Below are positions 257 through 12,001 of a DNA stretch of 12,001 nt, piece by piece; position 1 is the first letter of the stretch; the number at the start of each line of letters is the position of its first letter. This DNA is from a virus. Its lineage: Duplodnaviria > Heunggongvirae > Uroviricota > Caudoviricetes. The position numbers and the translations under genes are program-made. A model generated the notes under the pieces. The model did no database searches. It saw nothing but the letters and a program-made list of their open reading frames with translations, and was not told the origin of the DNA. The DNA lies in IMG/VR virus record IMGVR_UViG_2711768053_000012, positions 1 through 12,001 of that record. One strand, 5' to 3'.

Positions 257-397
257 CACCGCACCACAATCAGGGCAGTTGCCGCCACCGATCTGACCGC
301 AGGCGGTGCAGACTTTTTTTGTTTTAACCTCATTACAGATTTAAGGGTGAACAAATCCCTGCCATTGCTGGCATATAAAAATGAAACCGGATATTAA

Positions 398-601
398 TTA
401 CGGTGCTGTTTTAAGTCCTGCCGGGATTTCGTTATTGTCCATGCGAATAACTTTATCAACCGGATAACAGTTGCCGGGAATTTTCTGTTCCGCTGCGGCA
501 GCCATGCATTCTTTCATTGAGTCATGTATACCAATAACAAGATCGACTGGTTCGCCAGTATTAAGAAAAACTGTCAGAACGAGTGCAAATGCTGTATTCA
601 T
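398..601 (-). CDS. Hypothetical small protein (67 aa) with hydrophobic N-terminus
   Basis: Internal Met of track ORF 398..655 chosen as start because of an AAGGA Shine-Dalgarno about 9 nt upstream on the minus strand. Product MNTAFALVLTVFLNTGEP... has a signal-peptide-like or membrane N-terminus. Its start lies 3 nt after the stop of the upstream gene 604..786. The longer start at 655 cannot be excluded. Confidence 0.4.
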   Translation of the reverse strand: MNTAFALVLTVFLNTGEPVDLVIGIHDSMKECMAAAAEQKIPGNCYPVDKVIRMDNNEIPAGLKTAP

Positions 602-603
602 TG

Positions 604-786
604 TCAGCGTCCTTTTTGCATCAGGCGTAAACGGGCCAGCATTGAAACAATGCATATTTGATTTAATAGCTCCCGTTCGTGTTTTCTCTTATTAATGGCA
701 TCTTCAGTAAATACAGGGTTACTGATTCTGACACCAATTTCAAAACAACCTTCAGACGTATTGACGTTTGGTAATAACGTTTCCAT
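604..786 (-). CDS. Hypothetical small early-left protein (60 aa)
   Basis: Track ORF with GAGGA Shine-Dalgarno 7 nt upstream of the ATG at 786 (minus strand); tightly packed with the next gene. No recognisable motif. Confidence 0.45.
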   Translation of the reverse strand: METLLPNVNTSEGCFEIGVRISNPVFTEDAINKRKHERELLNQICIVSMLARLRLMQKGR

Positions 787-803
787 TATCGCGTCCTCAA
801 CAA

Positions 804-967
804 TGAATTTTGTGATGCGGTGCCTGGTGCCTCCAGGTGACGTTAACCAGTTAACAATTAACGCCGGAATACAGGGAAACCAACTCCATAAAACAAATAC
901 GGAGTACCGATCACTTTTTTAACTGTTCCGCGTGCGCTGAGCCGCATTCACCGCATCACAAAATTCA
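804..967. repeat. Perfect 19-bp inverted repeat (TGAATTTTGTGATGCGGTG at 804-822, CACCGCATCACAAAATTCA at 949-967) flanking a 126-bp spacer
   Basis: Read directly from the sequence. Lies in a roughly 560-bp stretch (787-1345) with no convincing ORF on either strand. The spacer contains further palindromic elements (GTTAACCAGTTAAC, CCTGGTGCCTCCAGG). Confidence 0.8.
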
Positions 968-1354
968 CTTTAAAAAGGGCGGACATCAGCCAGCAATGAA
1001 ACTGATGCCGCCAAAAGGTAATCAACATGGGTTGTTGCAGCGGGGTTGTCACTCAGGCGTATGGTCAACCTGACAACCCGGTGTCCTCAACAGGGGGAAG
1101 GAATAACCCCGCCATACGTACCGCCGCGCCATTTCGCGGAGTGCCACAACCGGAAGCGCACGGTCGAATTAAATTTAACGACACCGTACAGTGAGACGAA
1201 CTTCGCCGTGCGCTTTCGCGTTATGCCCTGACTTTTCAGGGATATATCCTTTCAGTAAACTGTCAGTGCCGGATGCTCACCCGTGTCCGGCGCACGCACT
1301 CCACCTGACCCGCGGAGAACTCCTTAATTACCAACCCTCAGGAGGGTGAAATTT

Positions 1355-1546
1355 ATGACACAAGAAGAAAAAATAATGTTTCTTATGCGCCTGGCTGTGG
1401 AAACCTTTAACGCCCATTGCCAGGTGTCCATTTCACCATCTCACGCCATTTCTCTTGCTACCGAGCAAATGGGGGAGATTGACGTCATTTACGATAAATT
1501 TGAGGCATTCCTGGATAAGAAGCTTATGGCAGAGAAGCGTCAATAA
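1355..1546 (+). CDS. Hypothetical small protein (63 aa), plus-strand gene inside a leftward operon
   Basis: ATG at 1355 preceded by a consensus AGGAGG 9 nt upstream; the track start at 1346 is a GTG in the same frame. Product MTQEEKIMFLMRLAVETFNAHCQ... Its 3' end overlaps the 3' end of the convergent minus-strand gene 1524..2129 by 23 nt. Confidence 0.45.
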   Translation: MTQEEKIMFLMRLAVETFNAHCQVSISPSHAISLATEQMGEIDVIYDKFEAFLDKKLMAEKRQ

Positions 1547-2129
1547 TTCTCATTACCCATCGTAAATATACCGGAGTGGGCTTGACGTTGTGTTTTTCAA
1601 GCTCGCTCTTCATTACTTCCTGCAACTTTGAGCTGATAATAAACAAATCAGGTTTATCGTTATTATTTTTATCAGCATCGTCTTTTTTTGTTTTCGACTC
1701 TTGTGGTGAATGCTCGAAAGTAACTTGCAGGGTATTATTTTTAGCGTCCGCAGAGCCTAAAGTATGTGCATATGGATGTGCTATTGTGCGCCCCTGTAAA
1801 TTTGCATCGTTTTCTAAATCTTTTGATTTCAACAGAACATCAGCAAGACTCTGAATCATGCAGAGATAATCAAAAGCAGTTGCCGTTTCTGTTCTGATTG
1901 ATGAAAGAACATGGCCATTCACGCAAACAGAAATTACCCGTTCATTAACATCGCTTTCCTGCTTTTGATTATCAGAACCATATAACCCAGAAAAAGCATT
2001 GCGCACATTACGAACCATATTATCGATGGTTTCTTTTTTAGCGGATGCCGGGTCAATTTCCACCAGGCTATCACTGAGTGTCGTTGCAGCAATTGTCTGG
2101 ATTTCTTTTGGTAAATCTTTAAATTCCAT
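1524..2129 (-). CDS. Hypothetical protein (201 aa), AT-rich, hydrophilic
   Basis: Track ORF with GAGG Shine-Dalgarno 8 nt upstream of the ATG at 2129; follows the upstream gene (stop at 2152) after a 22-nt gap. Lys/Asp/Asn-rich; no recognised domain. Appears AT-richer than neighbours by eye. Confidence 0.6.
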   Translation of the reverse strand: MEFKDLPKEIQTIAATTLSDSLVEIDPASAKKETIDNMVRNVRNAFSGLYGSDNQKQESDVNERVISVCVNGHVLSSIRTETATAFDYLCMIQSLADVLLKSKDLENDANLQGRTIAHPYAHTLGSADAKNNTLQVTFEHSPQESKTKKDDADKNNNDKPDLFIISSKLQEVMKSELEKHNVKPTPVYLRWVMRIIDASLP

Positions 2130-2151
2130 TATTAGCCTCGTTGGTTAGCTA

Positions 2152-2370
2152 TTAACGCGGGTATGTAATCATTCTGGCAACGCTTAATGCCGCTGCCTTT
2201 GTCAGACTGGCGATATCCTGCTCCAGAGCGGACAGATTTTCAGCCTGCTTAGCCCTGGCTTCATTGGCCCATTTCAGATCCTGCGCTGCATTAATTTTCT
2301 GGCGCATCCACTCATAAAGTTCATCATCGGTATAGTCTGGCGCGATGATGACGGGTTCTCGTTTCTGCAT
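2152..2370 (-). CDS. Hypothetical small phage protein (72 aa)
   Basis: Track ORF; same orientation and tight spacing with flanking leftward genes. Product MQKREPVIIAPDYTDDELYEWMRQKINAAQ... Confidence 0.55.
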   Translation of the reverse strand: MQKREPVIIAPDYTDDELYEWMRQKINAAQDLKWANEARAKQAENLSALEQDIASLTKAAALSVARMITYPR

Positions 2371-2400
2371 ACTGAATTCCTCGCGGTGCTGTTTCGCTTA

Positions 2401-2529
2401 TCAGCCGTTAGATTTTGCCGAACTGGAAAGCGCCTGTTCAAATTCGCTGAAGCTGAGGACTTCTTCGCCTTCGGCAAGGCCTTCGAAGTATTCTTCGTAA
2501 GCCTTTTCCATGATTGTGTCGAAATCCAT
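2401..2529 (-). CDS. ydaG: YdaG-like small protein (42 aa)
   Basis: Below the size cutoff of the ORF track; found by my own reverse-complement translation: MDFDTIMEKAYEEYFEGLAEGEEVLSFSEFEQALSSSAKSNG. ATG at 2529, TGA at 2403-2401. Matches my recollection of E. coli Rac prophage YdaG. Start lies 2 nt after the ydaF-like stop. Confidence 0.6.
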   Translation of the reverse strand: MDFDTIMEKAYEEYFEGLAEGEEVLSFSEFEQALSSSAKSNG

Positions 2530-2530
2530 A

Positions 2531-2686
2531 TCACTCACCTGAGTTTCTTTCCAGCCAGCGACGGGCACCATTTTCGGTTTTAAACGTTTTGCTTATGGTA
2601 TACGTCATCGCGGTGAATGTGCCGTCCTGGTTGGGAAACACGCCGTATACCAGAGATTCGTTGTTGCCAAGATCGATAGTATCCAT
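2531..2686 (-). CDS. ydaF: YdaF-like small protein (51 aa, DUF1391-like)
   Basis: Internal Met of track ORF 2531..2764 with GAGG Shine-Dalgarno 5 nt upstream. Product MDTIDLGNNESLVYGVFPNQDGTFTAMTYTISKTFKTENGARRWLERNSGE matches my recollection of Rac prophage YdaF. The 77-aa extended form is less likely. Confidence 0.6.
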   Translation of the reverse strand: MDTIDLGNNESLVYGVFPNQDGTFTAMTYTISKTFKTENGARRWLERNSGE

Positions 2687-2864
2687 GCTGACCTCATTTC
2701 CCCTTAACGCCGGGGTAGCGGAACAAAAACCTGCTGCATAGTTAAAGTTGAACCCTGCCGTCATGTTCTTACGCCTCGGGCTGGCTACTTAACCCCTGAC
2801 CACTGCCTGGTAACTCGAAGTATTGCCCTGCATTCTGTGGGGCGGGGTGGGTTGGTATGCAATA

Positions 2865-2893
2865 AATCTAAAAGTATTTAGTTTTATAGTCAA
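2865..2893 (-). promoter_or_regulatory. pL-like leftward promoter with overlapping operator palindrome
   Basis: On the minus strand: -35 TTGACT (plus 2888-2893), 17-nt spacer, -10 TAGATT (plus 2865-2870). Overlaps the imperfect palindrome AATCTAA-AAGTAT-TTAGTTT at 2865-2884, which has the same 7-6-7 architecture as sites next to the cro-like gene. Confidence 0.45.
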
Positions 2894-2910
2894 GGAAAAT
2901 CTAAATTAAT

Positions 2911-2938
2911 TTAAAAAAAGGTCGGCATAACCGACCTT
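2911..2938 (-). terminator. Rho-independent terminator downstream of the repressor gene
   Basis: Minus-strand hairpin AAGGTCGG-ttatg-CCGACCTT followed by a 7-T run, immediately after the repressor stop at 2960. Confidence 0.6.
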
Positions 2939-2959
2939 AAGTTCAAGAACATGGCAGGG

Positions 2960-3607
2960 TTATAGGTTGAACTGTACACCTTTTGCTACGGCAACAATTT
3001 TACACTCTGGCGTAAGCAAGGATGATTGATAGCGCGGATTGAGAGGGCTTAAATACACAAGTTTTCCATCAATAACTAATTTTTTTATAGTCATAGACGG
3101 TTCATTTGTAAGAGGATCTGGAACTATTACAGCGACGATACTGCCATTTTTATAACTTTCTCCTGGTCTTAGGATCACAGTGGCACCAACTGGGATACTT
3201 GGCGACCCTGAGGGGTTATGCATAGTGTCATCAGGCATTGAAACGGCAAAATCACCTTCCACTACATCAAAGAATGTGGTGATCCTATCGACATTTCCCA
3301 TTGTTTTCTCTCCTTCTAAGATTAGGAAAGAAATCGCGTCACCCCACGAAAAGTAGGGGATCTTGGTGCCTGGATTGCTCTGCACAAAAGATAGTTCAGG
3401 AGACGATACTCCATACAGGAGATAGGACTCAGTAGTTCCTAATGCTTGGGCTAACTTACTTAGAGCTTTGCTGCCGGGTTCGTTTAGATCTTTCTCCCAG
3501 TACCCTATAGTAACCCCAGTCACGCCTGAAAGCTTACCCAGTTCTACTTGGGTGAGTCCCTTATCTTTTCTGAGTTTCTTAAGCCTGATGCCAAGGCTTT
3601 CCATCAT
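2960..3607 (-). CDS. CI-like prophage repressor (N-terminal HTH_XRE, C-terminal S24 LexA-type self-cleaving peptidase)
   Basis: 215 aa. N-terminal HTH (LTQVELGKLSGVTGVTIGYWE). C-terminal S24 signatures: Ser in AVSMPD and Lys in IKKLVIDGKLVYLSPLNPRYQ, the latter closely resembling lambda CI [27 protein letters not shown] Shine-Dalgarno upstream of the ATG at 3607. Divergent from the cro-like gene. Confidence 0.9.
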   Translation of the reverse strand: MMESLGIRLKKLRKDKGLTQVELGKLSGVTGVTIGYWEKDLNEPGSKALSKLAQALGTTESYLLYGVSSPELSFVQSNPGTKIPYFSWGDAISFLILEGEKTMGNVDRITTFFDVVEGDFAVSMPDDTMHNPSGSPSIPVGATVILRPGESYKNGSIVAVIVPDPLTNEPSMTIKKLVIDGKLVYLSPLNPRYQSSLLTPECKIVAVAKGVQFNL

Positions 3608-3623
3608 TTTCTCCCGCGAGTTG

Positions 3624-3690
3624 AATATAAATTATTTTAGATTGCATTGACCTAAAAAAAATTATCCTGTAATCTAAAAATACTTAGATT
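3624..3690. promoter_or_regulatory. Immunity-region operator/promoter (OR/pR-like): two 7-6-7 palindromic operators and a rightward promoter
   Basis: Perfect palindrome AATCTAA-AAATAC-TTAGATT at 3671-3690 and near-perfect AATATAA-ATTATT-TTAGATT at 3624-3643. Candidate pR: -35 TTGACC 3647-3652, 17-nt spacer, weak -10 TAATCT 3670-3675 overlapping the operator. Sits between the divergent repressor and cro-like genes. Confidence 0.5.
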
Positions 3691-3703
3691 TTAGGAGAGT
3701 GAA

Positions 3704-3931
3704 ATGCGAGTTGATGAACTTGTTCAGTTTTTTGGCTCTGTTCAGAGGGTCGCTGATTTTTATGGGATAACCCGCGAAGCTATTTACATGTGGCGTAAGC
3801 GCCCCGGTGAAATAGTTCCGAAAGGGAGAGCTGCGGAAGCTGCTGCATACTCCAAGGGAAAATTATCTTTGAACCCAGAGCTTTACAAAAAGAAGGATAC
3901 CACTCAGAGCGAAAGGAAGAGTGATTCATGA
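3704..3931 (+). CDS. Cro-like HTH regulator (75 aa)
   Basis: GGAGAG Shine-Dalgarno 6 nt upstream. The motif ELVQFFGSVQRVADFYGITREAIYMWRKRPGEIVP parallels P22 Cro (VIDHFGTQRAVAKALGISDAAVSQWKEVIPE, from memory). First gene rightward of the repressor. Confidence 0.8.
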   Translation: MRVDELVQFFGSVQRVADFYGITREAIYMWRKRPGEIVPKGRAAEAAAYSKGKLSLNPELYKKKDTTQSERKSDS

Positions 3932-4353
3932 AAATCAAGCATGAGCACATCCGCATGGCGATGAATGCCTGGGCGCATCCGGATGGTGAAAAAGTTCCGG
4001 CAGCTGAAATAACCCGGGCTTATTTTGAGCTGGGTATGACGTTCCCGGAACTGTATGACGACAGCCATCCGGAAGCCCTGGCTCGCAATACTCAGAAAAT
4101 TTTCCGCTGGGTGGAGAAAGACACCCCTGATGCGGTTAAAAAAATTCAGGCGTTGTTACCAGCGATCGAAAAAGCAATGCCACCTCTGCTGGTGGCCCGA
4201 ATGCGCAGCCACAGTTCAGCCTATTTTCGGGAGCTGGTGGAGACGCGGGAACGACTGGTGAGAGATGCTGATGATTTTGTCGCAGTGGCGATCGCTGGTT
4301 TCAATCAGATGAATCGTGGTGGTCCGGCGGGAAATGCCCTGGTGATGCACTAA
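3928..4353 (+). CDS. ydaT: YdaT-like protein (CII functional analogue family), 141 aa
   Basis: Start overlaps the cro-like stop (ATGA). N-terminus MKIKHEHI and C-terminal ...VMH match my recollection of Rac/CP-933P YdaT; it occupies the cII position after cro. AGGAAGAG Shine-Dalgarno upstream. Confidence 0.6.
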   Translation: MKIKHEHIRMAMNAWAHPDGEKVPAAEITRAYFELGMTFPELYDDSHPEALARNTQKIFRWVEKDTPDAVKKIQALLPAIEKAMPPLLVARMRSHSSAYFRELVETRERLVRDADDFVAVAIAGFNQMNRGGPAGNALVMH

Positions 4354-4376
4354 AAGCACGGTGTTCGGAGTTTTTT

Positions 4377-5324
4377 ATGAGCAGCAAGCTTCATGGTCTT
4401 GTCTGGGAAGGGTGCGCCTTCACCGGCATGATCTTATCCAGGGTGGCAGTAATGGCTCGCCTTGCAGATTACAGCAATGACGAAGGTGTGTCATGGCCTG
4501 CAGTGGAGACCATTCGTCGTCAGATTGGGGCAAAGAGTGAATCAACGGTTAAAGCTGCGATAGCGGAACTGGAAAAGAACGGCTGGCTGACGAAGGAGGA
4601 ACGTAAGGTCGGTGGGCGTAATGTAAGCAATATCTACCGCCTTAATGTGGAAAAACTCGAAGCAGCAGCAGCGGCGGCGCGTGAGGCATATAAACCGAAA
4701 AGAAAAATTAGCCAGGCAAAAAATGACCCGTCAAATATTGCCCCCTCAACGGTTGACCCCTCAAATTTTGATGGATCAACCATTGATAAAAAACAGTCGG
4801 ATAGGGGGGCGATGGTTGGCCCCGATCCGTCAGTATTAAAACCTGATCCGTCAGATAAAAGATCTTTTCGTCCGGACGCTTCGCAACCGGACCCGCAGAC
4901 GGCTGAACAGGATTTTTTAACCCGACACCCTGACGCGGTTGTGTTCAGTGCGAAAAAACGCCAGTGGGGCAGCCAGGAAGATTTGGCGTGTGCGCAGTGG
5001 ATCTGGGGACGAATCGTGAGTCTTTACGAGCAGGCTGCCAGCGATGATGGCGAAATCATGCGACCGAAAGAACCCAACTGGACTGCATGGGCCAATGATG
5101 TGCGCACAATGCGGATGCTGGATGGCAGAACTCACAGACAAATTTGCGAAATGTTTGGTCGGGTACAGCGGGATCCATTCTGGGTAAAAAACGTCATGAG
5201 CCCGTCAAAGCTTCGCGAAAAATGGGATGAGCTGGTTATTCGTCTGGGGCGTTCGCCTGTACAGCGTTGCGTGAATCACATTTCTGAACCGGATACCGAA
5301 ATTCCGCCGGGCTTCAGGGGGTAA
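4377..5324 (+). CDS. Phage replication initiation protein (N-terminal HTH DNA-binding domain, low-complexity linker, C-terminal domain; lambda O-like organisation)
   Basis: 315 aa. N-terminal region LSRVAVMARLADYSNDEGVSWPAVETIRRQIGAKSESTVKAAIAELEKNGWL is typical of phage replication-initiator HTH domains. The linker DPSNIAPSTVDPSNFDGS...PDPSVLKPDPSDK is encoded by iteron-like DNA repeats. Sits after the cro/cII-like genes. Confidence 0.7.
   Translation: MSSKLHGLVWEGCAFTGMILSRVAVMARLADYSNDEGVSWPAVETIRRQIGAKSESTVKAAIAELEKNGWLTKEERKVGGRNVSNIYRLNVEKLEAAAAAAREAYKPKRKISQAKNDPSNIAPSTVDPSNFDGSTIDKKQSDRGAMVGPDPSVLKPDPSDKRSFRPDASQPDPQTAEQDFLTRHPDAVVFSAKKRQWGSQEDLACAQWIWGRIVSLYEQAASDDGEIMRPKEPNWTAWANDVRTMRMLDGRTHRQICEMFGRVQRDPFWVKNVMSPSKLREKWDELVIRLGRSPVQRCVNHISEPDTEIPPGFRG
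4725..4905 (+). repeat. Iteron-like direct repeats (candidate replication origin) inside the replication initiator gene
   Basis: GACCCGTCAAATATTG (4725-4740), GACCCCTCAAATTTTG (4755-4770), GATCCGTCAGTATTAAA (4824-4840), GATCCGTCAGATAAAA (4845-4860), plus degenerate copies near 4741-4750 and 4890-4899. Consensus GAYCCNTCA followed by an A/T-rich tail. Confidence 0.55.
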
Positions 5325-5366
5325 GTGTTGATTTGAGGTTATGAAGTTATTTTCTCAGGAGAGTTT

Positions 5367-5768
5367 ATGGGGACTATTTATACCGAAGAACAGCGGGAAA
5401 GATTACAGCGTCATATCGTTGACCTTGTGCGTAAAAACGGGCGTATGACAATGCCACAACTGGCATCGGCAACATATGCTTCACATGATTCCATTCGCCG
5501 GTACCTGAAGATGCTGGTGAGCGAGGGCGAAGTGTATGTTGTCAGCGGAAAAGGGGTATTCCTTTCAGAGAGGGTTTACCGTGAATGGCTGGCAAGTTCG
5601 GCAAGAAAAGCAAGGGTTATCCGCAAACCAGCACAAAAACAGGGTAAGGCAGGAGCACAACCCTATGACCGGCACCAGAACATAATTTGCCGTGAGTGCC
5701 GGAAGAGTGAAGTTATGCAGCGTGTACTGGCGTTCTATCAGGGAGATTTTCAGGAGGTGATGGAGTGA
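5367..5768 (+). CDS. Hypothetical phage protein with probable winged-helix DNA-binding N-terminus (133 aa)
   Basis: AGGAGA Shine-Dalgarno 5 nt upstream of ATG. The segment NGRMTMPQLASATYASHDSIRRYLKMLVSEGEV is wHTH-like; basic C-terminal tail. No helicase-loader features. Confidence 0.6.
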   Translation: MGTIYTEEQRERLQRHIVDLVRKNGRMTMPQLASATYASHDSIRRYLKMLVSEGEVYVVSGKGVFLSERVYREWLASSARKARVIRKPAQKQGKAGAQPYDRHQNIICRECRKSEVMQRVLAFYQGDFQEVME

Positions 5769-6070
5769 GGGTGAGGGTTTATATCGCCGGTCCGATGACC
5801 GGGTATAAAAATTTCAACCGTGAGGCGTTCCACAAGGCGGAAGAGGAACTGAAACGGGAAGGGCATACAGTCTTAAACCCAGCAGTACTTCCGGACGGAC
5901 TGACGCAGCCACACTATATGGATATTTGCATGGCAATGATTCGTTGTGTGGATGCGATTTACATGCTGAAAGGCTGGCAGCGGTCAGCAGGTGCTAAGGC
6001 AGAACTGGCACTGGCGGAGAAGCTGGGGCATGCAGTTATTTTTCAGGAGGCAACCAGTGAGCAACATTAA
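5765..6070 (+). CDS. DUF4406-like protein (nucleoside 2-deoxyribosyltransferase-like fold), 101 aa
   Basis: GTG start at 5765 overlapping the upstream stop, AGGAGG 7 nt upstream. N-terminal VYIAGPMTGYKNFNREAFHKAEEELKREGHTVLNP matches my recollection of the DUF4406 signature (YIAGPMTG...NP). Confidence 0.65.
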   Translation: MRVRVYIAGPMTGYKNFNREAFHKAEEELKREGHTVLNPAVLPDGLTQPHYMDICMAMIRCVDAIYMLKGWQRSAGAKAELALAEKLGHAVIFQEATSEQH

Positions 6071-6611
6071 TTACCAGGCACTGCGAATGGCGGCAGAAAA
6101 TGCAACCCCTGGCGAATGGTGTTCTGATGATTATGGGGTAATTGCCGATGCCGGACTGAACGCAAATTACTACATAGCATCATGCTCAGGACCAGATAAT
6201 CGCGCCAATAAGCGATTCATAGCGGCAGCCAATCCGGCTACCGTGCTGGCAGTGCTTGATGAACGGGGAGCCCAAAGCAAACGCATTGCAGAGCTGGAAG
6301 CTAATCTTGTGGCGCTGGCGGCGGAGAATGCAGGGCTGAATAAATTTATCGCACAGAGTTGCTACGTGTTTGATGGCGAGCAGGATGAAATATCTGATGC
6401 GTATATCTGCGCAAGAGACGGAGGTATGCCGCAAACCACGGCTACAGATGCTCTCCTGGCTGATGTACGGGCGGTGGCGTTTGACGAACTTCGCGCGGCG
6501 TTTGTCAGGCACGCAAAAGTTGCAGGACTGGATGATGCCGATACCGTAACGCTTAAGGAAGTGACAGAAGCATTGTTGCATTGTGCGGAACAGATTCGCT
6601 CGCCTGAATAA
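6057..6611 (+). CDS. Ead/Ea22-like phage protein
   Basis: The track ORF starts at 5991 inside the previous gene. I prefer the in-frame GTG at 6057 (AGGAGG 6045-6050, 6 nt upstream); an ATG at about 6090 is an alternative. The N-terminal motif INYQALRMAAENATPGEW resembles the conserved start of Ead/Ea22-like proteins as I recall them. Confidence 0.6.
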   Translation: MSNINYQALRMAAENATPGEWCSDDYGVIADAGLNANYYIASCSGPDNRANKRFIAAANPATVLAVLDERGAQSKRIAELEANLVALAAENAGLNKFIAQSCYVFDGEQDEISDAYICARDGGMPQTTATDALLADVRAVAFDELRAAFVRHAKVAGLDDADTVTLKEVTEALLHCAEQIRSPE

Positions 6612-6705
6612 TTAAATTTAGTGTTGCAAATAAAATTTAATCCTTAACCGGAGGGATTCCTACACCCTCAGAACATCAGGAGGCCGCCCGAAAGGGCGGT
6701 AATGA

Positions 6706-6924
6706 ATGGTCACATTATTCAGAAAAAAATATCCACGAAAGAGTAGAACAACAGAATTCCTGTTTCTCATTCTGTTTATCGTGTTAATGATACCGATATC
6801 CCCGCTAATTTTTGTCTGGGCAATCGGGAAAATAATTGAGCCAGTTATTGAATTGTATAACGACGTGGTATGGGCGTCGTTCAACACACTGCACAATAAA
6901 ATTAATCCGTATAAGGAGAACTGA
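6706..6924 (+). CDS. Hypothetical small membrane protein (72 aa; basic N-terminus plus one transmembrane helix)
   Basis: Track ORF. Product MVTLFRKKYPRKSRTTEFLFLILFIVLMIPISPLIFVWAIGK... Stop at 6922-6924, 1 nt before the next gene's ATG. Region is AT-rich by eye. An AGGAGG at 6678-6683 is separated from the ATG by a GNRA-loop hairpin. Confidence 0.5.
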   Translation: MVTLFRKKYPRKSRTTEFLFLILFIVLMIPISPLIFVWAIGKIIEPVIELYNDVVWASFNTLHNKINPYKEN

Positions 6925-6925
6925 T

Positions 6926-7444
6926 ATGACCACTATTACCAGAGAAAACGCGGAGATTAAATCATTCATCACTGGTTTCCTGAGCGACCCGGCGCACGAT
7001 ATCCAATCTTCAGACAGCCTGCTTGCCAATGTGTTTCGTATCGCACTGGCGTCACTGGAAGCAGAGCCAGTGGCGTGGAAGGCAACCTTCACGCAAATTG
7101 ACAATGAATATAATACGTTCACTGCTCTGTATTCTGACAAAGCAGAAGTCGAACGGTGGGTGCGACTGCATGAAATAGGTGACTTTCGGGCAGAAATAAC
7201 ACCGCTTTACGCAGCGCCGTCAGCGCCGGTAGCTCCAGATGGTTGGATAAGCTGTAGTGAGCGAATGCCAAAAGATGGTCAGCACGTAATTATTTTATGT
7301 GATGGCGCATTCGTTCTTTATGCGCAATATCGGGACGGTGAGTTTTTTGATGTCGTCCGCAATGGTGAGGAATTCTTCGAAACGCAGAGCCGCAATGTAA
7401 CCCACTGGATACTGCTACCGGAGCCGCCGCAGGAGGTGAACTGA
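6926..7444 (+). CDS. Phage protein with C-terminal DUF551-like domain (172 aa)
   Basis: The track ORF starts at 6836 inside the previous gene; ATG at 6926 has an AAGGAGA Shine-Dalgarno 6 nt upstream. C-terminal ...THWILLPEPPQEV matches my recollection of the DUF551 C-terminal motif. Confidence 0.65.
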   Translation: MTTITRENAEIKSFITGFLSDPAHDIQSSDSLLANVFRIALASLEAEPVAWKATFTQIDNEYNTFTALYSDKAEVERWVRLHEIGDFRAEITPLYAAPSAPVAPDGWISCSERMPKDGQHVIILCDGAFVLYAQYRDGEFFDVVRNGEEFFETQSRNVTHWILLPEPPQEVN

Positions 7445-7836
7445 TGAATGAAGGCGACAATGTTATCACCCTGGTGCAGCCAAAATCAGAGGAGGAAGGG
7501 CTCCTTAACGTTGTGATAACCGACAGAAAAAGCGGCGAGCAAAAATACTGTCAGCATATCCGTACAACAATTTCAGAAGTGAAGCGTACGATTACCTGCA
7601 ACCGATGCGGATTGGCTTTAGAACCGTTCGAACTTGTTCTCGACCGTGCGAGAAACGGTGAAAACATCGTGTCAGAGATTAAATCACTCTATGCAAAGCG
7701 GGATGCTCTTCGTGAAGCTGTGGCAAAACTTGAACGTGAAGAGAAAAACGCCAAAGCCCGGTTGCGAGCAGCCAGGACTGCAATACTGTATGCGGAAAAT
7801 GACCTTAAAAATATTGGGCAGGAGGTGAATCGATGA
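7444..7836 (+). CDS. Hypothetical phage protein (130 aa) with Cys pair and C-terminal coiled-coil-like region
   Basis: ATG overlaps the upstream stop (TGATG), AGGAGG 7 nt upstream. CQH...C...CNRC residues and a heptad-like charged C-terminus (AKRDALREAVAKLEREEKNAKARLRAAR). Confidence 0.65.
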   Translation: MNEGDNVITLVQPKSEEEGLLNVVITDRKSGEQKYCQHIRTTISEVKRTITCNRCGLALEPFELVLDRARNGENIVSEIKSLYAKRDALREAVAKLEREEKNAKARLRAARTAILYAENDLKNIGQEVNR

Positions 7837-7916
7837 CCTGGCCTGAGGCATTTACTACGGTAGGAATTGCGATGGCGGTGGCGCTGGTGGTGTATTCGAT
7901 TTGCCGCTGGGGATAA
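7833..7916 (+). CDS. Small hydrophobic peptide (27 aa), translationally coupled
   Basis: Below the ORF-track cutoff; my own translation is MTWPEAFTTVGIAMAVALVVYSICRWG. ATG overlaps the upstream stop (ATGA), with a consensus AGGAGG (7820-7825) 7 nt upstream. Single predicted transmembrane segment. Confidence 0.45.
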   Translation: MTWPEAFTTVGIAMAVALVVYSICRWG

Positions 7917-8127
7917 AAACGGTTTGCGGGAAAAGGAGAGTTAAGTAGAATTGCTGCGGGTGCTTGAGGCTATCTGCCTCAGGCATGAACACCAAAAGGC
8001 AGATAGAGAAAAGCCCCAGTTAACATTACGCGTCCTGCAAGACGCTTAACATTAATCTGAGGCCCAATCTATGTCTCACAAATGTAGGTTAGCCTCTTAC
8101 GTGCCGAAAGGCAAGGAGAAGCAGGCT

Positions 8128-8283
8128 ATGAAGCAGCAAAAGGCGATGTTAATCGCCCTGATCGTCATCTGTTTAACCGTCATAGTGACGGCACTGGTAA
8201 CGAGGAAAGACCTCTGCGAGGTACGAATCCGAACCGGCCAGACGGAGGTCGCTGTCTTCACAGCTTACGAACCTGAGGAGTAA
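8128..8283 (+). CDS. hokD: Hok/Gef family type I toxin (51 aa)
   Basis: Product MKQQKAMLIALIVICLTVIVTALVTRKDLCEVRIRTGQTEVAVFTAYEPEE matches my recollection of E. coli HokD (RelF) and aligns closely with Gef/Hok. AAGGAGA Shine-Dalgarno 8 nt upstream of the ATG at 8128. The track ORF starts at an upstream in-frame ATG (8071) giving 70 aa. The upstream leader is highly structured and a terminator follows. Confidence 0.85.
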   Translation: MKQQKAMLIALIVICLTVIVTALVTRKDLCEVRIRTGQTEVAVFTAYEPEE

Positions 8284-8351
8284 GAGACCAGGCGGGGGAG
8301 AAATCCCTCGCCACCTCTGATGTGTCAGGCATCCTCAACGCACCCGCACTT

Positions 8352-8376
8352 AACCCGCTTCGGCGGGTTTTTTATT
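8352..8376 (+). terminator. Rho-independent terminator after hok
   Basis: Hairpin AACCCGC-ttcg-GCGGGTT followed by TTTTTTATT. The 21 bp TAACCCGCTTCGGCGGGTTTT (8351-8371) recur identically at 10186-10206. Confidence 0.75.
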
Positions 8377-8421
8377 GGTTGACAAAATTATGAATATGCA
8401 CCAATATCTTGGTTGACAAAA
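8375..8421 (+). promoter_or_regulatory. Tandem 13-bp direct repeats TTGGTTGACAAAA (8375-8387 and 8409-8421) containing a consensus -35 TTGACA; candidate promoter/operator of the cassette
   Basis: Read from the sequence; repeats are 34 bp apart. The first TTGACA (8379-8384) with a 17-nt spacer gives a weak -10 CAATAT (8402-8407), placing the second repeat near the predicted transcription start. Confidence 0.45.
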
Positions 8422-8456
8422 GTCGTTTTTTGCACGGATTAGGCGGAGAAGTGTCT

Positions 8457-9050
8457 ATGCAGAAGCATCCATTCCCTTGGGAGTTCTTTCCTGAGTTAAC
8501 AGAGGATCGTTTAACCATTATAGCTGAGGAGTTGCTCAGGATACAGGATATTACTCATGAGTTATTGTCATCGCCCTATGATGATAATTACACTCGTGGT
8601 GGTTGTACATTTGGGCGTCAGCGGCAGGCGTTGCTACAAATGTGCATACGAAAGACATATGACTGGTTAAGACTACTTAATCCTGGCATGGATCTTACGT
8701 TTTCAATTGGGAATGTCCCTATTCGTTTCTTTACTGATGACGCAGATAACCCCAAGAAACGCGGTTTTTTCAAAAGAAATGATGCTGATCGACTCTTTGA
8801 GTCAGAGGAGACCACTCCAACTATGCATCGCTTTGTGGTTGAAAAGCCTGAATTTGAAGGCGAGGGTGGTAGAGTCATTTTTAATGGCTATAACGTGTTT
8901 GGTGAGATCGTGTCAACTTGGACATATGGTGCGGACCGTGTTGTTATGCTGAACTCTGTCGATGATGTACCTCCAGCACCGGTACCTATCGAACTAGAAC
9001 CTATCAGTGCGTCTAAGACTGAGAAGGAAAAGAAACAAAATAGCAAATAG
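8457..9050 (+). CDS. Hypothetical protein, first gene of the cassette (197 aa from ATG 8457; 213 aa if ATG 8409 is used)
   Basis: Track ORF 8409..9050. I prefer the in-frame ATG at 8457 (GGAG about 10 nt upstream) because the 8409 ATG lies inside the direct-repeat/-35 element. No recognisable catalytic motif; acidic Pro-rich C-terminus and Lys-rich tail. AT-richer than the flanks by eye. Confidence 0.6.
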   Translation: MQKHPFPWEFFPELTEDRLTIIAEELLRIQDITHELLSSPYDDNYTRGGCTFGRQRQALLQMCIRKTYDWLRLLNPGMDLTFSIGNVPIRFFTDDADNPKKRGFFKRNDADRLFESEETTPTMHRFVVEKPEFEGEGGRVIFNGYNVFGEIVSTWTYGADRVVMLNSVDDVPPAPVPIELEPISASKTEKEKKQNSK

Positions 9051-9060
9051 TGGGTGAAAT

Positions 9061-10182
9061 GTGTTTAACGGTACTAATTTAAGACTTGCTCGTCTGTATC
9101 ACGAGCTATCTCTGGAGCAGGTTGCTGAGAAGGTTGAAAAAACACGCCAGTATGTACAGCGACTGGAGTCTGGTTCAGCTACTCCATCCCCAGAGCTTAT
9201 AAATAAATTAGCCGAGGTTTTGCGCGTGAAGCCCGCCTTTTTCGAAGGGCAGGAACATTCTCCTGTTAATGAAGAGATTGTACATTTTCGTAAACGCGCC
9301 TCGACAAGGATGTCAACGAAGCTATCAACACTCGCTAAGGCTGAGTTTTATCGTCGTTTTATTGATGTATTTGAAGATAACCTTAATTTGTCACCTGTTC
9401 GATTTCCTGAATTTCGTGTCCATACACAAGAAGATATCGAGCGAGCGGCAGAAAAATGTCGTATTGAGTGGGGCTTAGGCTTTGGCCCAATTGAAAATAT
9501 GACTCGCCTTGCCGAGAAACTTGGGGCGTTTGTTACTTCATTTGACTCCGTTTCGGATGAAGTAGATGCACTGTCTGTTCCTCTACGAAGGCCTTTTATT
9601 GTTCGAAATACAGCTAAAAATTCACCTTGTAGGCAACGCTTTGATATTGCTCATGAGGTTGCCCATTTGATTCTTCATGAAGGAATTTCTACTGGGGATA
9701 GATTAACTGAATCCCAGGCAAACCGCTTTGCCTCTGCTCTGTTGCTTCCCAGAACGTCGATGGCGAAATATTTTCCAAGACCTGTGGGGGGGAGGATAAA
9801 TTGGCAGGGACTAAGCCAATTTAAGTTGACATGGAAAGTAAGTAAGGCTGCCATTGTTTACAGGGCTCATCAATTAGGACTTTTGACTGATGAGCAGTAC
9901 AGAACTGCATTTATGGGGTTGAAACGGAAAGGGGAAGCTATTGATGAAAAAGAAGATTATCTAATCCCTCATGAGCGTCCTGAGTTATTCCGTCGGGCTT
10001 TATCGTTTTTATTTGAAGAGTTAGGATACGACCCACAGCGTATAGCTGATGAAATGGATATAGAAGTGGACATTTTTTATGAGTTAGTAGGAGATGATCT
10101 TCCTGCGGTTCATGAACTGCCAGGAAGTGGTGATGTTGTTTCACTACAATCTTACCGAACTCTTAGAGGCAAAATTCACTAG
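9061..10182 (+). CDS. Fused HTH_XRE DNA-binding domain plus ImmA/IrrE-family (DUF955/COG2856-type) HExxH zinc metallopeptidase, 373 aa
   Basis: GTG start at 9061, first start after an in-frame stop and 10 nt after the upstream gene's stop. N-terminal HTH (LSLEQVAEKVEKTRQYVQRLESGSATPSPELINKLAEVLRV); HEVAH (HExxH) at about 9652-9666 inside FDIAHEVAHLILHE, typical of ImmA/IrrE peptidases; about 120-aa C-terminal extension. A terminator follows immediately. Confidence 0.8.
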   Translation: MFNGTNLRLARLYHELSLEQVAEKVEKTRQYVQRLESGSATPSPELINKLAEVLRVKPAFFEGQEHSPVNEEIVHFRKRASTRMSTKLSTLAKAEFYRRFIDVFEDNLNLSPVRFPEFRVHTQEDIERAAEKCRIEWGLGFGPIENMTRLAEKLGAFVTSFDSVSDEVDALSVPLRRPFIVRNTAKNSPCRQRFDIAHEVAHLILHEGISTGDRLTESQANRFASALLLPRTSMAKYFPRPVGGRINWQGLSQFKLTWKVSKAAIVYRAHQLGLLTDEQYRTAFMGLKRKGEAIDEKEDYLIPHERPELFRRALSFLFEELGYDPQRIADEMDIEVDIFYELVGDDLPAVHELPGSGDVVSLQSYRTLRGKIH

Positions 10183-10186
10183 GCAT

Positions 10187-10214
10187 AACCCGCTTCGGCG
10201 GGTTTTGTTTTTTC
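10187..10214 (+). terminator. Rho-independent terminator after the cassette (sequence-identical to the hok terminator)
   Basis: Hairpin AACCCGC-ttcg-GCGGGTT followed by TTGTTTTTTCT, beginning 5 nt after the stop at 10182. Confidence 0.75.
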
Positions 10215-10285
10215 TGAGCATCCTGGTTTACAATTCGCACGTCAGCCTGAACACCTGACACCTGCTGCGCCAGCAGAGAAAACCG

Positions 10286-10558
10286 ATGGCGCACAATACC
10301 AAACATCACAATTCTGATACCGACCTTGCCAGCAGGCACGGGCGGCGTTCTCATACATTCAAATATGACTGGTTCCAGCATGATCCATGCACTGAAGAAC
10401 AGGCCGAATGGCTGATTCAGTGTTACCGCAGGCGCGGATGCGAGGTTAAAAAAGCCCTTAGCCTCGACTACCGACATTGGATAATTTCAGTCAGGCTCCC
10501 TTATTCCGAACGCCCGCCGCGTCCGTCCCGCACATTACAGCAACGGATCTGGAGGTAA
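10286..10558 (+). CDS. Hypothetical protein (90 aa), rem-like by position
   Basis: Track ORF ending 1 nt before the YdfU-like start; weak Shine-Dalgarno. Sits directly upstream of the DUF968 gene, as rem does relative to ydfU in E. coli K-12 Qin (recollection of gene order only, no sequence recognition). Confidence 0.4.
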   Translation: MAHNTKHHNSDTDLASRHGRRSHTFKYDWFQHDPCTEEQAEWLIQCYRRRGCEVKKALSLDYRHWIISVRLPYSERPPRPSRTLQQRIWR

Positions 10559-10559
10559 C

Positions 10560-11609
10560 ATGCGGGTATTGCTTCGACCTGTTCTGGTACCGGAACTCGG
10601 GCTGGTGGTCCTTAAGCCTGGTCGTGAATCCATGCAGGTATTTCATAATCCTCGAGTGCTGGTGGAGCCGGAACCGAAAAGCATGCGCAGTCTGCCGTCA
10701 GGAGCTGTTCCTGCCGTTCGCCAGCCGCTCGTGGAAGATAAATCATTACTGCCATTTTTCAGCGATGAGCGGGCGATTCGTGCTGCTGGCGGCGCTGGCG
10801 CATTGTCTGACTGGCTCCTGCGTCATGTTAAATCCTGCCAGTGGCCTCATGGTGACTATCACCACAGCGAAACCGTCATACATCGTTACGGTACCGGCGC
10901 AATGGTGTTGTGCTGGCACTGTGACAACCAGCTGCGCGACCAGACATCAGAATCACTCGGGCAACTTGCTCAACAAAACTTGTCAGCATGGATGATTGAC
11001 GTCATCCGTCACGCAATGAATGGCACACAGGAGCGGGAATTATCGCTAGCTGAATTATCCTGGTGGGCGGTCTGCAATCGGGTAGCGGACGCGCTACCGG
11101 AGGCAGTATTACGTCGTTCTCTGGGGTTACGTGCGGAAAAAATCCGTTCGGCGTACCGCGAAAGTGACATCGTACCGGGAGAGCAGACAGCCACCAGCAT
11201 ACTGAAGCAGCGCACAAAAAATATTGTGCTACCGCCTCACGCCCACCAGCAACAGAACCCACCACAGGAAAAGACGGTGGTCAGCATTGCCGTTGATCCG
11301 GAGTCTCCTGAATCTTTCATGAAACGACCTAAACGTCGCCGTTGGGTTAATAAGAAATACACGCGCTGGGTAAAGACACAGCCGTGTGCGTGTTGTGGTA
11401 AGCCAGCCGACGATCCCCATCACCTGATTGGTCACGGTCAGGGAGGGATGGGAACAAAGGCCCACGATATTTTCACGCTACCGTTGTGCCGGGAACATCA
11501 CAACGAACTTCATGCGGATCTGCTGGCGTTCGAAGAAAAGCATGGTTCTCAGGTTGATTTAATTTTTCGTTTTCTTGATCACGCCTTTGCAACCGGCGTG
11601 CTCGGGTAA
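10560..11609 (+). CDS. DUF968-like protein, YdfU-like (349 aa) with C-terminal Cys/His-rich region
   Basis: GGAGG Shine-Dalgarno 4 nt upstream of ATG. C-terminal CACCGKPADDPHHLIGHG...CREHHNELH looks like a zinc-binding/HNH-like motif. Length and position (after a hok toxin, before nin-region genes) match my recollection of Qin YdfU. Confidence 0.65.
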   Translation: MRVLLRPVLVPELGLVVLKPGRESMQVFHNPRVLVEPEPKSMRSLPSGAVPAVRQPLVEDKSLLPFFSDERAIRAAGGAGALSDWLLRHVKSCQWPHGDYHHSETVIHRYGTGAMVLCWHCDNQLRDQTSESLGQLAQQNLSAWMIDVIRHAMNGTQERELSLAELSWWAVCNRVADALPEAVLRRSLGLRAEKIRSAYRESDIVPGEQTATSILKQRTKNIVLPPHAHQQQNPPQEKTVVSIAVDPESPESFMKRPKRRRWVNKKYTRWVKTQPCACCGKPADDPHHLIGHGQGGMGTKAHDIFTLPLCREHHNELHADLLAFEEKHGSQVDLIFRFLDHAFATGVLG

Positions 11610-11621
11610 AAGAGGTTACTG

Positions 11622-11996
11622 ATGCGTATAGAGTTTGTTTTGCCTTACCCACCGACGGTGAACACCTACTGGCGACGTCGTGGCAGCACATATTTTGTAT
11701 CAAAAGCCGGTGAGCGTTATCGCCGGGATGTGGCACTTATTGTTCGCCAGCAGCGACTGAAATTAAACCTGTCCGGAAGGCTAGCGATAAAGATTATTGC
11801 AGAGCCACCGGATAAGCGCCGCCGCGACCTGGACAATATCCTGAAGGCACCACTGGATGCGCTGACGCATGCCGGACTACTTATAGACGACGAGCAGTTT
11901 GATGAAATCAATATTGTGCGCGGTCAGCTCGTTCCTGGTGGACGTCTGGGGGTGAAGATTTACCCCATAATGCATGAAGAGCAGGTCAAAAAATGA
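11622..11996 (+). CDS. rusA: RusA-family Holliday junction resolvase
   Basis: 124 aa. PPDKRRRDLDNILKAPLDALTHAGLLIDDEQ matches the RusA catalytic region (E. coli RusA [30 protein letters not shown], from memory). AGAGG Shine-Dalgarno upstream. An ATG overlapping its stop (11993) probably starts the next nin-region gene. Confidence 0.85.
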   Translation: MRIEFVLPYPPTVNTYWRRRGSTYFVSKAGERYRRDVALIVRQQRLKLNLSGRLAIKIIAEPPDKRRRDLDNILKAPLDALTHAGLLIDDEQFDEINIVRGQLVPGGRLGVKIYPIMHEEQVKK

Positions 11997-12001
11997 AGCT
12001 G

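Follow-up and report, generated by a model that had tools for sequence, protein, structure and literature searches.

A very probably intact hok/mok/sok type I toxin–antitoxin cassette of the hokD/hokW lineage in a lambdoid prophage

The hok/sok "host-killing" module consists of a small membrane toxin that is restrained by an antisense RNA and by the folding of its own mRNA. A 12,001-nt stretch of viral DNA (Caudoviricetes; IMG/VR record IMGVR_UViG_2711768053_000012, positions 1 to 12,001), here called the window, contains a short Hok-like reading frame behind a strongly structured leader, which raises the question of whether a whole module is preserved here, antisense RNA included, or only a remnant of one. 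We conclude that the region from about 7905 to 8377 is, with high probability, an intact and self-contained hok/mok/sok type I toxin–antitoxin cassette of the hokD/hokW lineage. Every element of the regulatory set described for plasmid R1 can be placed in it (tac, the metastable 5′ hairpin, ucb, the Sok-target hairpin, the mok SD and ATG, dcb, the hok SD, the protective 3′ hairpin, fbi and the terminator; Table 1), and the analysis directly provides the sequence elements, their pairing potential, their covariation and their identity to tested relatives. The locus is an ordinary full copy of a textbook module and is already known. It is 99.4% identical over 484 nt to RefSeq loci annotated hokD, an annotation already present in thousands of E. 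coli genomes, and a copy covering at least 80% of the query is kept in 3907 of 5426 complete E. coli genomes. The cassette carries no IS element, frameshift or truncation, in contrast to several decayed copies in the same data set, in which tac is mutated (L007), the leader deleted (L008 and L029), fbi lost (L017) or the frame shifted (L049).

Table 1. Features of the hok/mok/sok cassette, in window coordinates
Feature	Position	Strand	Description and basis
Putative hok promoter	7923..7951	+	Weak −35 TTTGCG (7923–7928), 17-nt spacer, −10 TAGAAT (7946–7951); read from sequence
Full-length hok mRNA (predicted)	7958..8374	+	About 417 nt, from conserved GGGUGC 5′ end to terminator T-run
tac (translational activator element), GGGUGCUUGAGGC	7958..7970	+	Partner is fbi in full-length mRNA, ucb in processed mRNA
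Metastable 5′ hairpin of nascent transcript	7960..7986	+	11 bp, arms 7960–7970/7976–7986, loop UAUCU
Upper 10-bp helix of tac stem, with loop	7970..8006	+	7970–7979 with 7997–8006
Sok antisense RNA (predicted)	8009..8079	−	About 71 nt, 8079→8009; ends mapped from 933W sokW annotation by alignment
ucb (anti-SD box), AAGCCCCAG	8011..8019	+	Sequesters mok SD in full-length mRNA; taken over by tac once the 3′ end is processed
Long hairpin between ucb and mok SD	8018..8058	+	Body of Sok-complementary region; its complement is the Sok stem-loop
mok SD, GAGG	8059..8062	+	8 nt before mok ATG; counterpart of R1 GAGG mok SD (PMC9841398)
mok reading frame	8071..8283	+	70 aa, in frame with hok, common stop codon
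Sok promoter	8086..8114	−	−35 TTGCCT (8114→8109), 17-nt spacer, −10 TAACCT (8091→8086)
dcb (downstream complementary box), GCCUC	8092..8096	+	Pairs with mok SD region 8059–8063 in processed mRNA; Rfam structure mapping
hok SD, AAGGAG	8113..8118	+	9 nt before hok ATG; sequence, conserved in alignments
hok toxin gene	8128..8283	+	51 aa, MKQQKAMLIALIVICLTVIVTALVTRKDLCEVRIRTGQTEVAVFTAYEPEE; Pfam, K-12 identity, RefSeq hokD annotation
GC-rich 3′ UTR hairpin	8291..8312	+	Likely 3′ end protector of processed mRNA; role inferred from R1 (PMC9841398)
fbi (fold-back inhibitory element), CCUCAACGCACCC	8333..8345	+	Pairs with tac in MFE
Intrinsic terminator of hok mRNA	8352..8375	+	AACCCGC-UUCG-GCGGGUU then T-run; −11.8 kcal/mol, z −3.7

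The original prediction had assigned the toxin to the Hok/Gef family, and this assignment holds. The protein matches Pfam HOK_GEF (PF01848) at 82.9 bits over the whole model (1–42 of 42) against a cut-off of 22 bits, the coding sequence shows no nucleotide difference from E. coli K-12 hokD and the protein is identical to K-12 HokD. Residues 11–30 match the core pattern [LIVMA]4-C-[LIVMFA]-T-…-L-[CY], which we take to be the PROSITE Hok signature; a departure from Hok at the conserved Cys/Thr positions had been raised as a concern, and the conserved core is present. The NCBIfam Hok-family and HokA models score only below their cut-offs (48.5 bits versus 73 and 40.2 versus 89); these models are built on other Hok subgroups, and their scores are uninformative for the hokD subgroup. 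The in-frame ATG at 8071, which had been proposed to open a Mok-like frame, is by its sequence context the mok start: it lies 19 codons upstream of hok, the same geometry as in R1 and in mokW of phage 933W, its SD is invariant in 36 homologous loci from five genera (Escherichia, Kluyvera, Photorhabdus, Pantoea and Citrobacter), and a public annotation of this very contig calls the 70-aa version. By analogy, hok translation would be coupled to that of mok.

The leader itself reads as the hok 5′ UTR. A match to Rfam RF01794 extends over 7958–8133 of the plus strand (121.7 bits, E 6e-28, gathering score 59), covers the full model without truncation and begins, like the conserved block of homologous loci, at 7958; no other Rfam family reaches threshold in the window. 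In the alignment of hok loci that have kept their leader, a TAnAAT-like hexamer stands 6–7 nt upstream of the conserved GGG start, and the hok +1 would lie at about 7958. The mRNA from 7958 to 8373 folds at −171.5 kcal/mol (z −8.3), with none of 100 shuffles as good. Two stems had been pointed out within this leader. The TGAGGC/tatct/GCCTCA stem exists and forms the core of an 11-bp hairpin (−19.6 kcal/mol, z −5.1; none of 200 shuffles folds as well), although its true coordinates are 7965–7981, one base away from the 7964–7980 first given. The helix between CTATCTGCCT (7970–7979) and AGGCAGATAG (7997–8006) pairs exactly as described; it belongs to a 63-nt fold of −28.5 kcal/mol (z −4.4, 1 of 200 shuffles), in which the 10-bp helix is stacked under a 7-bp helix of 7958–7965 with 8011–8017, and its pairs are kept or compensated in the 36 loci (82% of cells paired). 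The two stems are not nested, as had been thought, but are mutually exclusive alternatives, since 7970–7979 is common to both: one is the co-transcriptional metastable hairpin, which competes with the tac stem for the same bases, and the other is part of the tac stem of the processed mRNA. By analogy with R1 (PMC9841398), the metastable hairpin would block both co-transcriptional translation and Sok binding.

Further downstream in the leader, the full-length MFE pairs 8013–8019 with 8057–8063, that is, ucb with the mok SD, while the Rfam consensus structure pairs 8011–8017 with 7958–7965, and the ucb columns are invariant in the 36 loci. Over the 36 loci, this independent consensus for the processed leader is 74% paired, versus at most 44% when slid. 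In the long hairpin between ucb and the mok SD, 5 of 10 pairs change on both sides among these loci, and on the minus strand G·U pairs take the place of two C·A/A·C mismatches of the plus strand. The pairs between dcb and the mok SD are invariant in all 36, and the corresponding hairpin (8059–8096) folds at −12.1 kcal/mol (z −3.4). A UACG-motif hairpin, considered as a site of TadA editing, folds weakly (−2.5 kcal/mol, z −0.2) and was set aside, the sequence motif alone being supported.

Folding of the whole transcript, which had been suggested as a check for 5′/3′ complementarity, does reveal the fold-back that characterizes hok mRNAs. The MFE pairs 7958–7969 of tac with fbi at 8333–8345, and this pairing is maintained in 90.7% of cells over the 36 loci, versus no more than 57% in slid controls; two positions show compensatory changes (U-A to C-G in 11 sequences and G-C to A-U in 5), and none of 500 shuffles reaches the covariation score. 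Constrained folding puts the cost of forcing tac onto ucb at +12.4 kcal/mol with fbi and +2.4 kcal/mol without it, and the controls show the same drop on fbi loss (R1, from +11.6 to +2.0; 933W, from +10.0 to +1.3 kcal/mol). In the MFE of the truncated RNAs 7958–8334 and 7958–8318, the tac/ucb fold is absent; the metastable hairpin is kept and tac/ucb lies 2.4 kcal/mol above the MFE. The truncated R1 RNA likewise has no tac/ucb MFE, so the missing fold may be a limit of the method and, judging from the R1 and 933W controls, may reflect a general property of the energy model rather than a defect of this locus. Compared with 933W, the hairpin at 8291–8312 (−18.8 kcal/mol, z −3.4) differs by G-C/G·U changes that preserve its structure; it could halt a 3′ exonuclease and, by analogy, is likely to be the protector of the truncated mRNA.

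On the opposite strand, the sequence predicts a Sok RNA of about 71 nt running from 8079 to 8009, its first 14 nt (8079→8066) being left unpaired as a 5′ tail, followed by a long hairpin (8065→8011) and a closing UUUUCUCU tail, and folding at −29.2 kcal/mol (z −5.3). Both the Sok and the hok transcripts are predictions from the contig sequence. The Sok promoter is, base for base, that of sokW in 933W/Sp5, where the promoter-less mutant of Takada et al. was made with a primer (YO-421) that replaces the −10 hexamer (PMC8621323). Its −35, 17-nt spacer and TAAYCT are conserved in most of the 36 loci. The interval originally suggested for a minus-strand search, 8040–8130, takes in this promoter and most of Sok but leaves the last ~30 nt (8009–8039) outside. 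A consensus scan of both strands of 7800–8500 for promoters and terminators called no sigma-70 promoter and only one terminator, that of hok. The scanner requires 4/6 consensus matches, and the hok and Sok promoters went uncalled because the hok −35 and the Sok −10 each have 3/6. We therefore do not read its silence as proof that promoters are absent, with both just below the rule and the Sok promoter identical to a tested one. Disruption of the antisense promoter or of the hok translation signals had been named as what would speak against a functional locus; on alignment, the Sok promoter, both SDs, both start codons and the conserved Cys/Thr core are all intact. The most variable part of the locus is a 22-nt patch at 8064–8085, which encodes the Sok 5′ tail together with the first mok codons and is flanked by highly conserved or invariant boxes.

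Within a lambdoid prophage, the cassette lies in the nin-like region, flanked by the replication genes on one side and the Q antiterminator on the other. Its neighbours are DUF551, HTH/M78 peptidase, DUF968, RusA and Q genes, and further upstream come cI/cro/YdaT and replication genes. In a whole-window megablast, coverage by any complete E. coli genome or phage stays within 65%; the prophage is a mosaic, while the hok cassette itself is standard. A close, experimentally tested relative is hokW-mokW-sokW of 933W/Sp5, with 94.5% nucleotide identity over 7917–8355 and all three genes annotated in 933W. The two share tac, ucb, the Sok hairpin, the Sok promoter, the SDs, the 3′ hairpin and fbi, both are prophage-borne, and both are preceded by the same conserved 27-aa ORF and upstream gene. 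In Sp5, hokW-sokW is experimentally a toxin/antisense-antitoxin (type I TA) pair, with sokW RNA seen by northern blot (PMC8621323). The differences are a Hok C-terminus of …FTAYEPEE here versus …FVDYESEK in HokW (48 of 51 residues identical), 7 positions of the 22-nt patch, the absence from 933W of the AACCCGC…GCGGGTT terminator, homology stopping just past fbi, and a different place of the cassette in the 933W genome.

K-12 hokD (relF), in the Qin cryptic prophage and hence also prophage-borne, has the identical coding sequence and the same 3′ UTR, fbi and terminator, but its homology begins only at 8114, inside the Sok −35, and it is fused behind relBE. K-12 is thus missing the hok promoter, the tac and ucb boxes, the Sok gene with its −10 and the mok start, and by this sequence comparison the window carries the complete ancestral form. 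The R1 prototype agrees in element order, in the 19-codon mok extension, in the 5′ motif GCUUGAGGCU(U/A)UCUGCCUCA, in the tac/fbi MFE pairing with the same energetic switch on fbi loss, and in the layout of the Sok promoter (−10 TATCCT in R1 versus TAACCT here). Outside the conserved boxes, however, the similarity to R1 is distant (mean column identity of 75% in a five-way alignment including R1); HokW, three residues away from this Hok, is reported to share 44% identity with the R1 toxin (PMC8621323). In the Sok region, the hairpin here exceeds the Rfam consensus by 16 nt. R1 is a plasmid rather than a prophage, and among these systems post-segregational killing has been shown for R1 only. 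In hokC (gef)/sokC, the Hok peptide is about 80% identical and the tac, ucb and fbi boxes and the layout of the Sok promoter match those here, whereas hokC-type loci have a short Sok-region hairpin (an 18-nt alignment gap), a −35 of TTGACC and another −10 region. hokC is also chromosomal and not prophage-borne, and its K-12-like copy (L017) is disrupted downstream.

The mechanism that we propose for the cassette is transferred from plasmid R1. A stable hok mRNA of about 417 nt would be made from the weak promoter, its 5′ end being trapped in the metastable hairpin during transcription. In the finished RNA, tac would pair with fbi and ucb would cover the mok SD, and this full-length fold would permit neither translation nor binding of the antisense RNA. 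Slow 3′ exonucleolytic trimming, as far as the hairpin at 8291–8312, would then remove fbi, tac would capture ucb and the mok SD would shift into a hairpin with dcb, so that mok becomes translatable and hok is translated through coupling to it. While the element is retained and its promoter fires, the short-lived Sok would use its unpaired 5′ tail to bind the region around the mok start, blocking mok and hence hok and marking the duplex for RNase III. Once the supply of Sok stops, Hok would insert into the inner membrane and collapse it. In R1 (PMC9841398), and in part in hokW-sokW (PMC8621323), Sok is known to be unstable, the duplex to be cleaved by RNase III and the loss of Sok to kill, and HokD is among the previously characterised toxic controls in bioRxiv 10.1101/2025.08.07.668861. 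For the present locus, we infer the transcription starts, 3′ processing, RNase III cleavage and toxicity in this host; its biological role would be prophage retention and/or help with lysis at induction. Chromosomal hokA, hokB and hokC are reported to be without post-segregational killing (summarised in bioRxiv 10.1101/2025.08.07.668861), and an intact sequence is thus no guarantee of R1-like behaviour.

The cassette might be structurally complete and yet physiologically silent, a hitch-hiking relic that has ceased to kill or stabilise, comparable to the hok loci in the chromosome of laboratory E. coli. Decayed copies such as those listed above are common in the same data set and, by consensus, the hok and Sok promoters are both weak, but we consider silence unlikely here. 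The known inactivating lesions are all absent, conservation and covariation of the regulatory elements across genera speak for ongoing selection, hokW-sokW at 94.5% identity is active in its native prophage (PMC8621323), and the 3907 E. coli genomes that retain a copy point the same way. It is barely credible, on the other hand, that the leader stems form an independent cis-regulatory RNA (an attenuator or riboswitch), or that the plus-strand Rfam match is the antitoxin gene itself. The family is indeed named 'sok antitoxin', its match lies on the plus strand and the leader is strongly structured. At 176 nt, however, the match is 2.5 times as long as Sok, takes in the hok SD and stops 3 nt beyond the hok AUG, and is thus the hok-mRNA-sense leader; sokW is annotated opposite the hokW strand in 933W, a promoter-like −35/17/−10 and a hairpin with U-tail are found on the minus strand, and the leader stems pair and covary with the 3′ UTR, which is hok-specific rather than attenuator-like. 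On these grounds we reject both readings.

There is some chance, well short of an even one, that the same hok/mok/sok cassette serves as an induction-fired helper of lysis timing and not in plasmid-style post-segregational killing: transcripts reading through from early phage genes upstream on the same strand would run into the convergent Sok promoter, Sok would be lost and Hok would help to open the membrane. [quoted passage not shown] (PMC8621323). In the window, the upstream ORFs (6836–7916) are all on the hok strand, the scan calls no terminator between them and the cassette, and the same upstream gene pair lies ahead of hokW in 933W, but the step of transcriptional interference is one that we infer, for a prophage known here from a 12-kb contig fragment. 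We regard as rather doubtful two linked ideas taken together: that the patch at 8064–8085 is an exchangeable specificity cassette, and that same-strand early-gene read-through at induction silences the convergent Sok promoter, so that Hok would aid lysis at the time of induction instead of serving as a stabiliser.

As a discovery, the locus carries little weight, the module being well characterised, with hokD in most E. coli genomes and hokW/mokW/sokW in Stx phages. Its uses are modest. Genome annotation is usually limited to the toxin ORF and passes over Sok, mok and the elements of the RNA switch, and matches of the Rfam 'sok' model mark the hok-sense strand, opposite to the one on which Sok is encoded. 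As a clean example of the complete ancestral form of K-12 hokD (relF), the cassette pinpoints what the laboratory strain has lost, namely everything upstream of 8114. If the idea of an exchangeable patch is true, its alleles could let near-identical prophage hok/sok copies share a cell without cross-neutralisation by Sok.

The hok/mok/sok locus at ~7905-8377 is intact and belongs to a thoroughly known family; public genomes already carry its annotation. The 51-aa ORF that had been assigned to the Hok/Gef toxins is indeed present on the plus strand (sequence and ORF list) and matches Pfam HOK_GEF over the whole model at 82.9 bits (cut-off 22 bits), and the upstream ATG, proposed to open a Mok-like frame, lies in frame 19 codons 5' of it and gives a product of 70 aa (ORF list). 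The leader (7958-8133) matches Rfam RF01794 ('sok') over its full length at 121.7 bits (E 6e-28; gathering score 59), and this is the sole Rfam family above threshold within the window. The hok CDS shows 0 nucleotide differences from E. coli K-12 hokD/relF. Of 5426 complete E. coli genomes, 4728 match 7917-8400 by megablast and 3907 do so over at least 80% of the query; the top matches are 99.4% identical and annotated hokD. Matches also occur in 102 phage records, including the Stx2 phage 933W, whose locus is 94.5% identical to the window's and whose annotation includes mokW, hokW and the antisense sokW. The original prediction is confirmed as an observation and supported in its interpretation.

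With element names following the summary of plasmid R1 in Le Rhun et al. 2022 (PMC9841398), all elements of the R1 prototype can be placed in the window locus, which also shows identity to tested relatives.

Elements of the hok/mok/sok cassette, in window coordinates
Element	Position
Putative hok promoter, weak -35 TTTGCG and -10 TAGAAT	7923-7928 and 7946-7951
mRNA start	~7958
tac (5' translational activator element)	7958-7970
Metastable hairpin	7960-7986
Upper tac-stem helix	7970-7979 with 7997-8006
ucb (anti-SD box)	8011-8019
Sok-region hairpin	8018-8058
mok SD (GAGG)	8059-8062
mok ATG	8071
dcb (downstream complementary box, GCCUC)	8092-8096
hok SD (AAGGAG)	8113-8118
hok	8128-8283
GC-rich 3' hairpin	8291-8312
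fbi (3' fold-back inhibitory element)	8333-8345
Terminator	8352-8375

Two leader stems had been described as nested. The TGAGGC/tatct/GCCTCA hairpin exists but sits one base rightward of its first placement (7965-7981, not 7964-7980), in the middle of an 11-bp hairpin (7960-7970 with 7976-7986) of -19.6 kcal/mol (z -5.1, 0 of 200 shuffles as good), and the pairing of CTATCTGCCT (7970-7979) with AGGCAGATAG (7997-8006) is exact. Both stems use 7970-7979, however, and are thus alternative, mutually exclusive folds. The full-length hok RNA folds at -171.5 kcal/mol (z -8.3 against shuffles); the predicted 5'/3' complementarity is found in its MFE structure as a tac/fbi pairing, and ucb there covers the mok SD.

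The energetic effect of removing fbi was followed by constrained folding of the full-length RNA and of an RNA truncated to 361 nt. Forcing the tac/ucb pairing costs +12.4 kcal/mol in the full-length and +2.4 kcal/mol in the truncated window RNA, compared with +11.6 and +2.0 kcal/mol for R1-type hok, the experimentally characterised prototype, and +10.0 and +1.3 kcal/mol for hokW of 933W. Given the similar drop in the window and R1, the modelled window switch is quantitatively like the prototype. In none of these three truncated RNAs is tac/ucb the strict MFE, which is taken as a limit of the energy model.

A genome scan with the Hok peptide yielded 53 loci; the alignment took in the 36 distinct ones that retain tac as well as fbi, which come from Escherichia, Kluyvera, Photorhabdus, Pantoea, Citrobacter and relatives. 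Standard pairs make up 90.7% of the tac/fbi cells; sliding the 3' partner by 1-3 columns lowers this to 32-57%. The count understates the Photorhabdus pairing, whose helix is without the one-base bulge and is misaligned by one column. Compensatory switches occur at position 4 of the helix (U-A to C-G, 11 sequences) and at position 12 (G-C to A-U, 5 sequences), and the observed covariation score was reached by 0 of 500 shuffles. For the processed leader, the Rfam consensus structure, derived independently of the window, is 74.4% paired in the 36 loci versus at most 44% when slid, and 5 of 10 Sok-hairpin pairs are changed on both sides.

Mapping the 933W sokW annotation through a five-way alignment that includes R1 places the predicted Sok on the minus strand at 8079->8009. 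Its candidate promoter on that strand comprises a -35 TTGCCT (8114->8109), a 17-nt spacer and a -10 TAACCT (8091->8086); the stretch is identical in the window and in 933W/Sp5, and Takada et al. made their 'promoter-less' sokW mutant with primer YO-421, which swaps out exactly the -10 hexamer (PMC8621323). The 36 related loci conserve the -35 (TTGCCT or TTGACC) and the 17-nt spacer, and most of them retain TAAYCT as the -10. The predicted Sok, 71 nt in length, begins with an unpaired 5' tail of 14 nt, continues as a long hairpin (-29.2 kcal/mol, z -5.3) and ends in a UUUUCUCU tail; two plus-strand C·A/A·C mismatches become G·U pairs on the minus strand. At 176 nt, on the plus strand and running through the hok SD to stop just beyond the hok AUG, the RF01794 match marks the sense-strand leader of hok and gives neither the strand nor the extent of Sok; automated annotation from this 'sok antitoxin' match would assign the antitoxin to the wrong strand.

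A 22-nt patch (8064-8085) encodes the first codons of mok on one strand and the Sok 5' tail on the other. Nowhere else does the locus vary as much (mean entropy 1.02 bits versus 0.18-0.71 elsewhere). The patch holds 7 of the 11 differences from the Shigella locus L009, which is nearly identical otherwise (Fisher p = 2e-7), and 7 of the 23 from 933W; on its two sides lie the mok SD, which is invariant, and the Sok -10, which is conserved. It may set Sok/hok specificity between co-resident copies. Within hok, UUACGAA (8265-8271) contains the TACG motif recognised by TadA, an A-to-I editing enzyme; editing at A8267 would change Tyr47 into Cys. All 36 aligned loci keep TACGAA unchanged, synonymous third codon base included, and R1 hok also carries it; folding around the motif gives a weak hairpin (-2.5 kcal/mol, z -0.2). 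Editing of ~6% is reported for K-12 hokD mRNA (PMC12214031).

Alignment to hokD/relF and other hok loci, which might have exposed an inactivated copy, reveals no known lesion in the window locus. K-12 hokD, in the Qin prophage, differs in that its homology to the window holds from 8114 onward only, with near-every-base matching through the terminator and relE upstream; the truncation breakpoint thus falls inside the Sok -35. Other relatives have decayed through a mutated tac box with an intact ORF (L007), leader replacement of the K-12 truncation type (L008 and L029), loss of fbi (L017) or a hok frameshift (L049, Shigella), and none of these lesions occurs in the window locus.

Homology to other contexts begins at ~7905-7911 and ends at ~8372-8377, edges that mark the cassette as a discrete mosaic unit of ~470 bp. 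The window is the entire 12,001-bp contig CXXT01000097.1 (GCA_001268445.1), a Rac/Qin-like lambdoid early region with cI/cro/YdaT, replication genes and DUF551 upstream of hok and HTH/M78 peptidase, DUF968 and RusA downstream, Q being next in relatives; coverage of it by any single complete genome or phage is at most 65%. A 27-aa hydrophobic ORF, MTWPEAFTTVGIAMAVALVVYSICRWG (7833-7916, plus strand), overlaps the preceding gene's stop codon (ATGA) and is conserved directly 5' of the cassette in 933W (21 of 26 residues identical) and in the loci L006/L011, L024 and L058. It is a candidate small membrane protein, without annotation in the two annotated records examined (933W and L058) and with no Pfam or NCBIfam match. 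Between the hok terminator and a 197-aa ORF (8457-9050) lie two exact plus-strand copies of TTGGTTGACAAAA (8375-8387 and 8409-8421), 34 bp apart and each holding a consensus -35 TTGACA, which could be tandem promoters or operator sites; the chance control allowing 2 mismatches is not striking, with at least 2 matches in 20 of 200 shuffles. The 197-aa ORF precedes a gene two ORFs 3' of hok (9061-10182, plus strand), encoding an HTH_3 and Peptidase_M78 (ImmA/IrrE-like) protein by Pfam, a module more usual beside phage repressors.

By analogy with R1 and Sp5, transcription would start at the corresponding sites, the hok mRNA would be slowly trimmed from its 3' end back to the GC-rich hairpin, mok and hok translation would be coupled, Sok would be unstable with RNase III cleavage involved, and killing would occur at the membrane. 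That transcription reading through from the upstream genes on the same strand might interfere with the convergent Sok promoter is speculation. For the sister phage Sp5, Takada et al. 2021 established by experiment that hokW-sokW is a type I toxin-antitoxin pair and detected both RNAs; mitomycin C triggers a RecA-dependent response in which sokW RNA is lost and HokW appears, and without the locus phage release falls to half (PMC8621323). Possible biological roles of the window cassette are prophage retention and, as in Sp5, help with lysis at induction.
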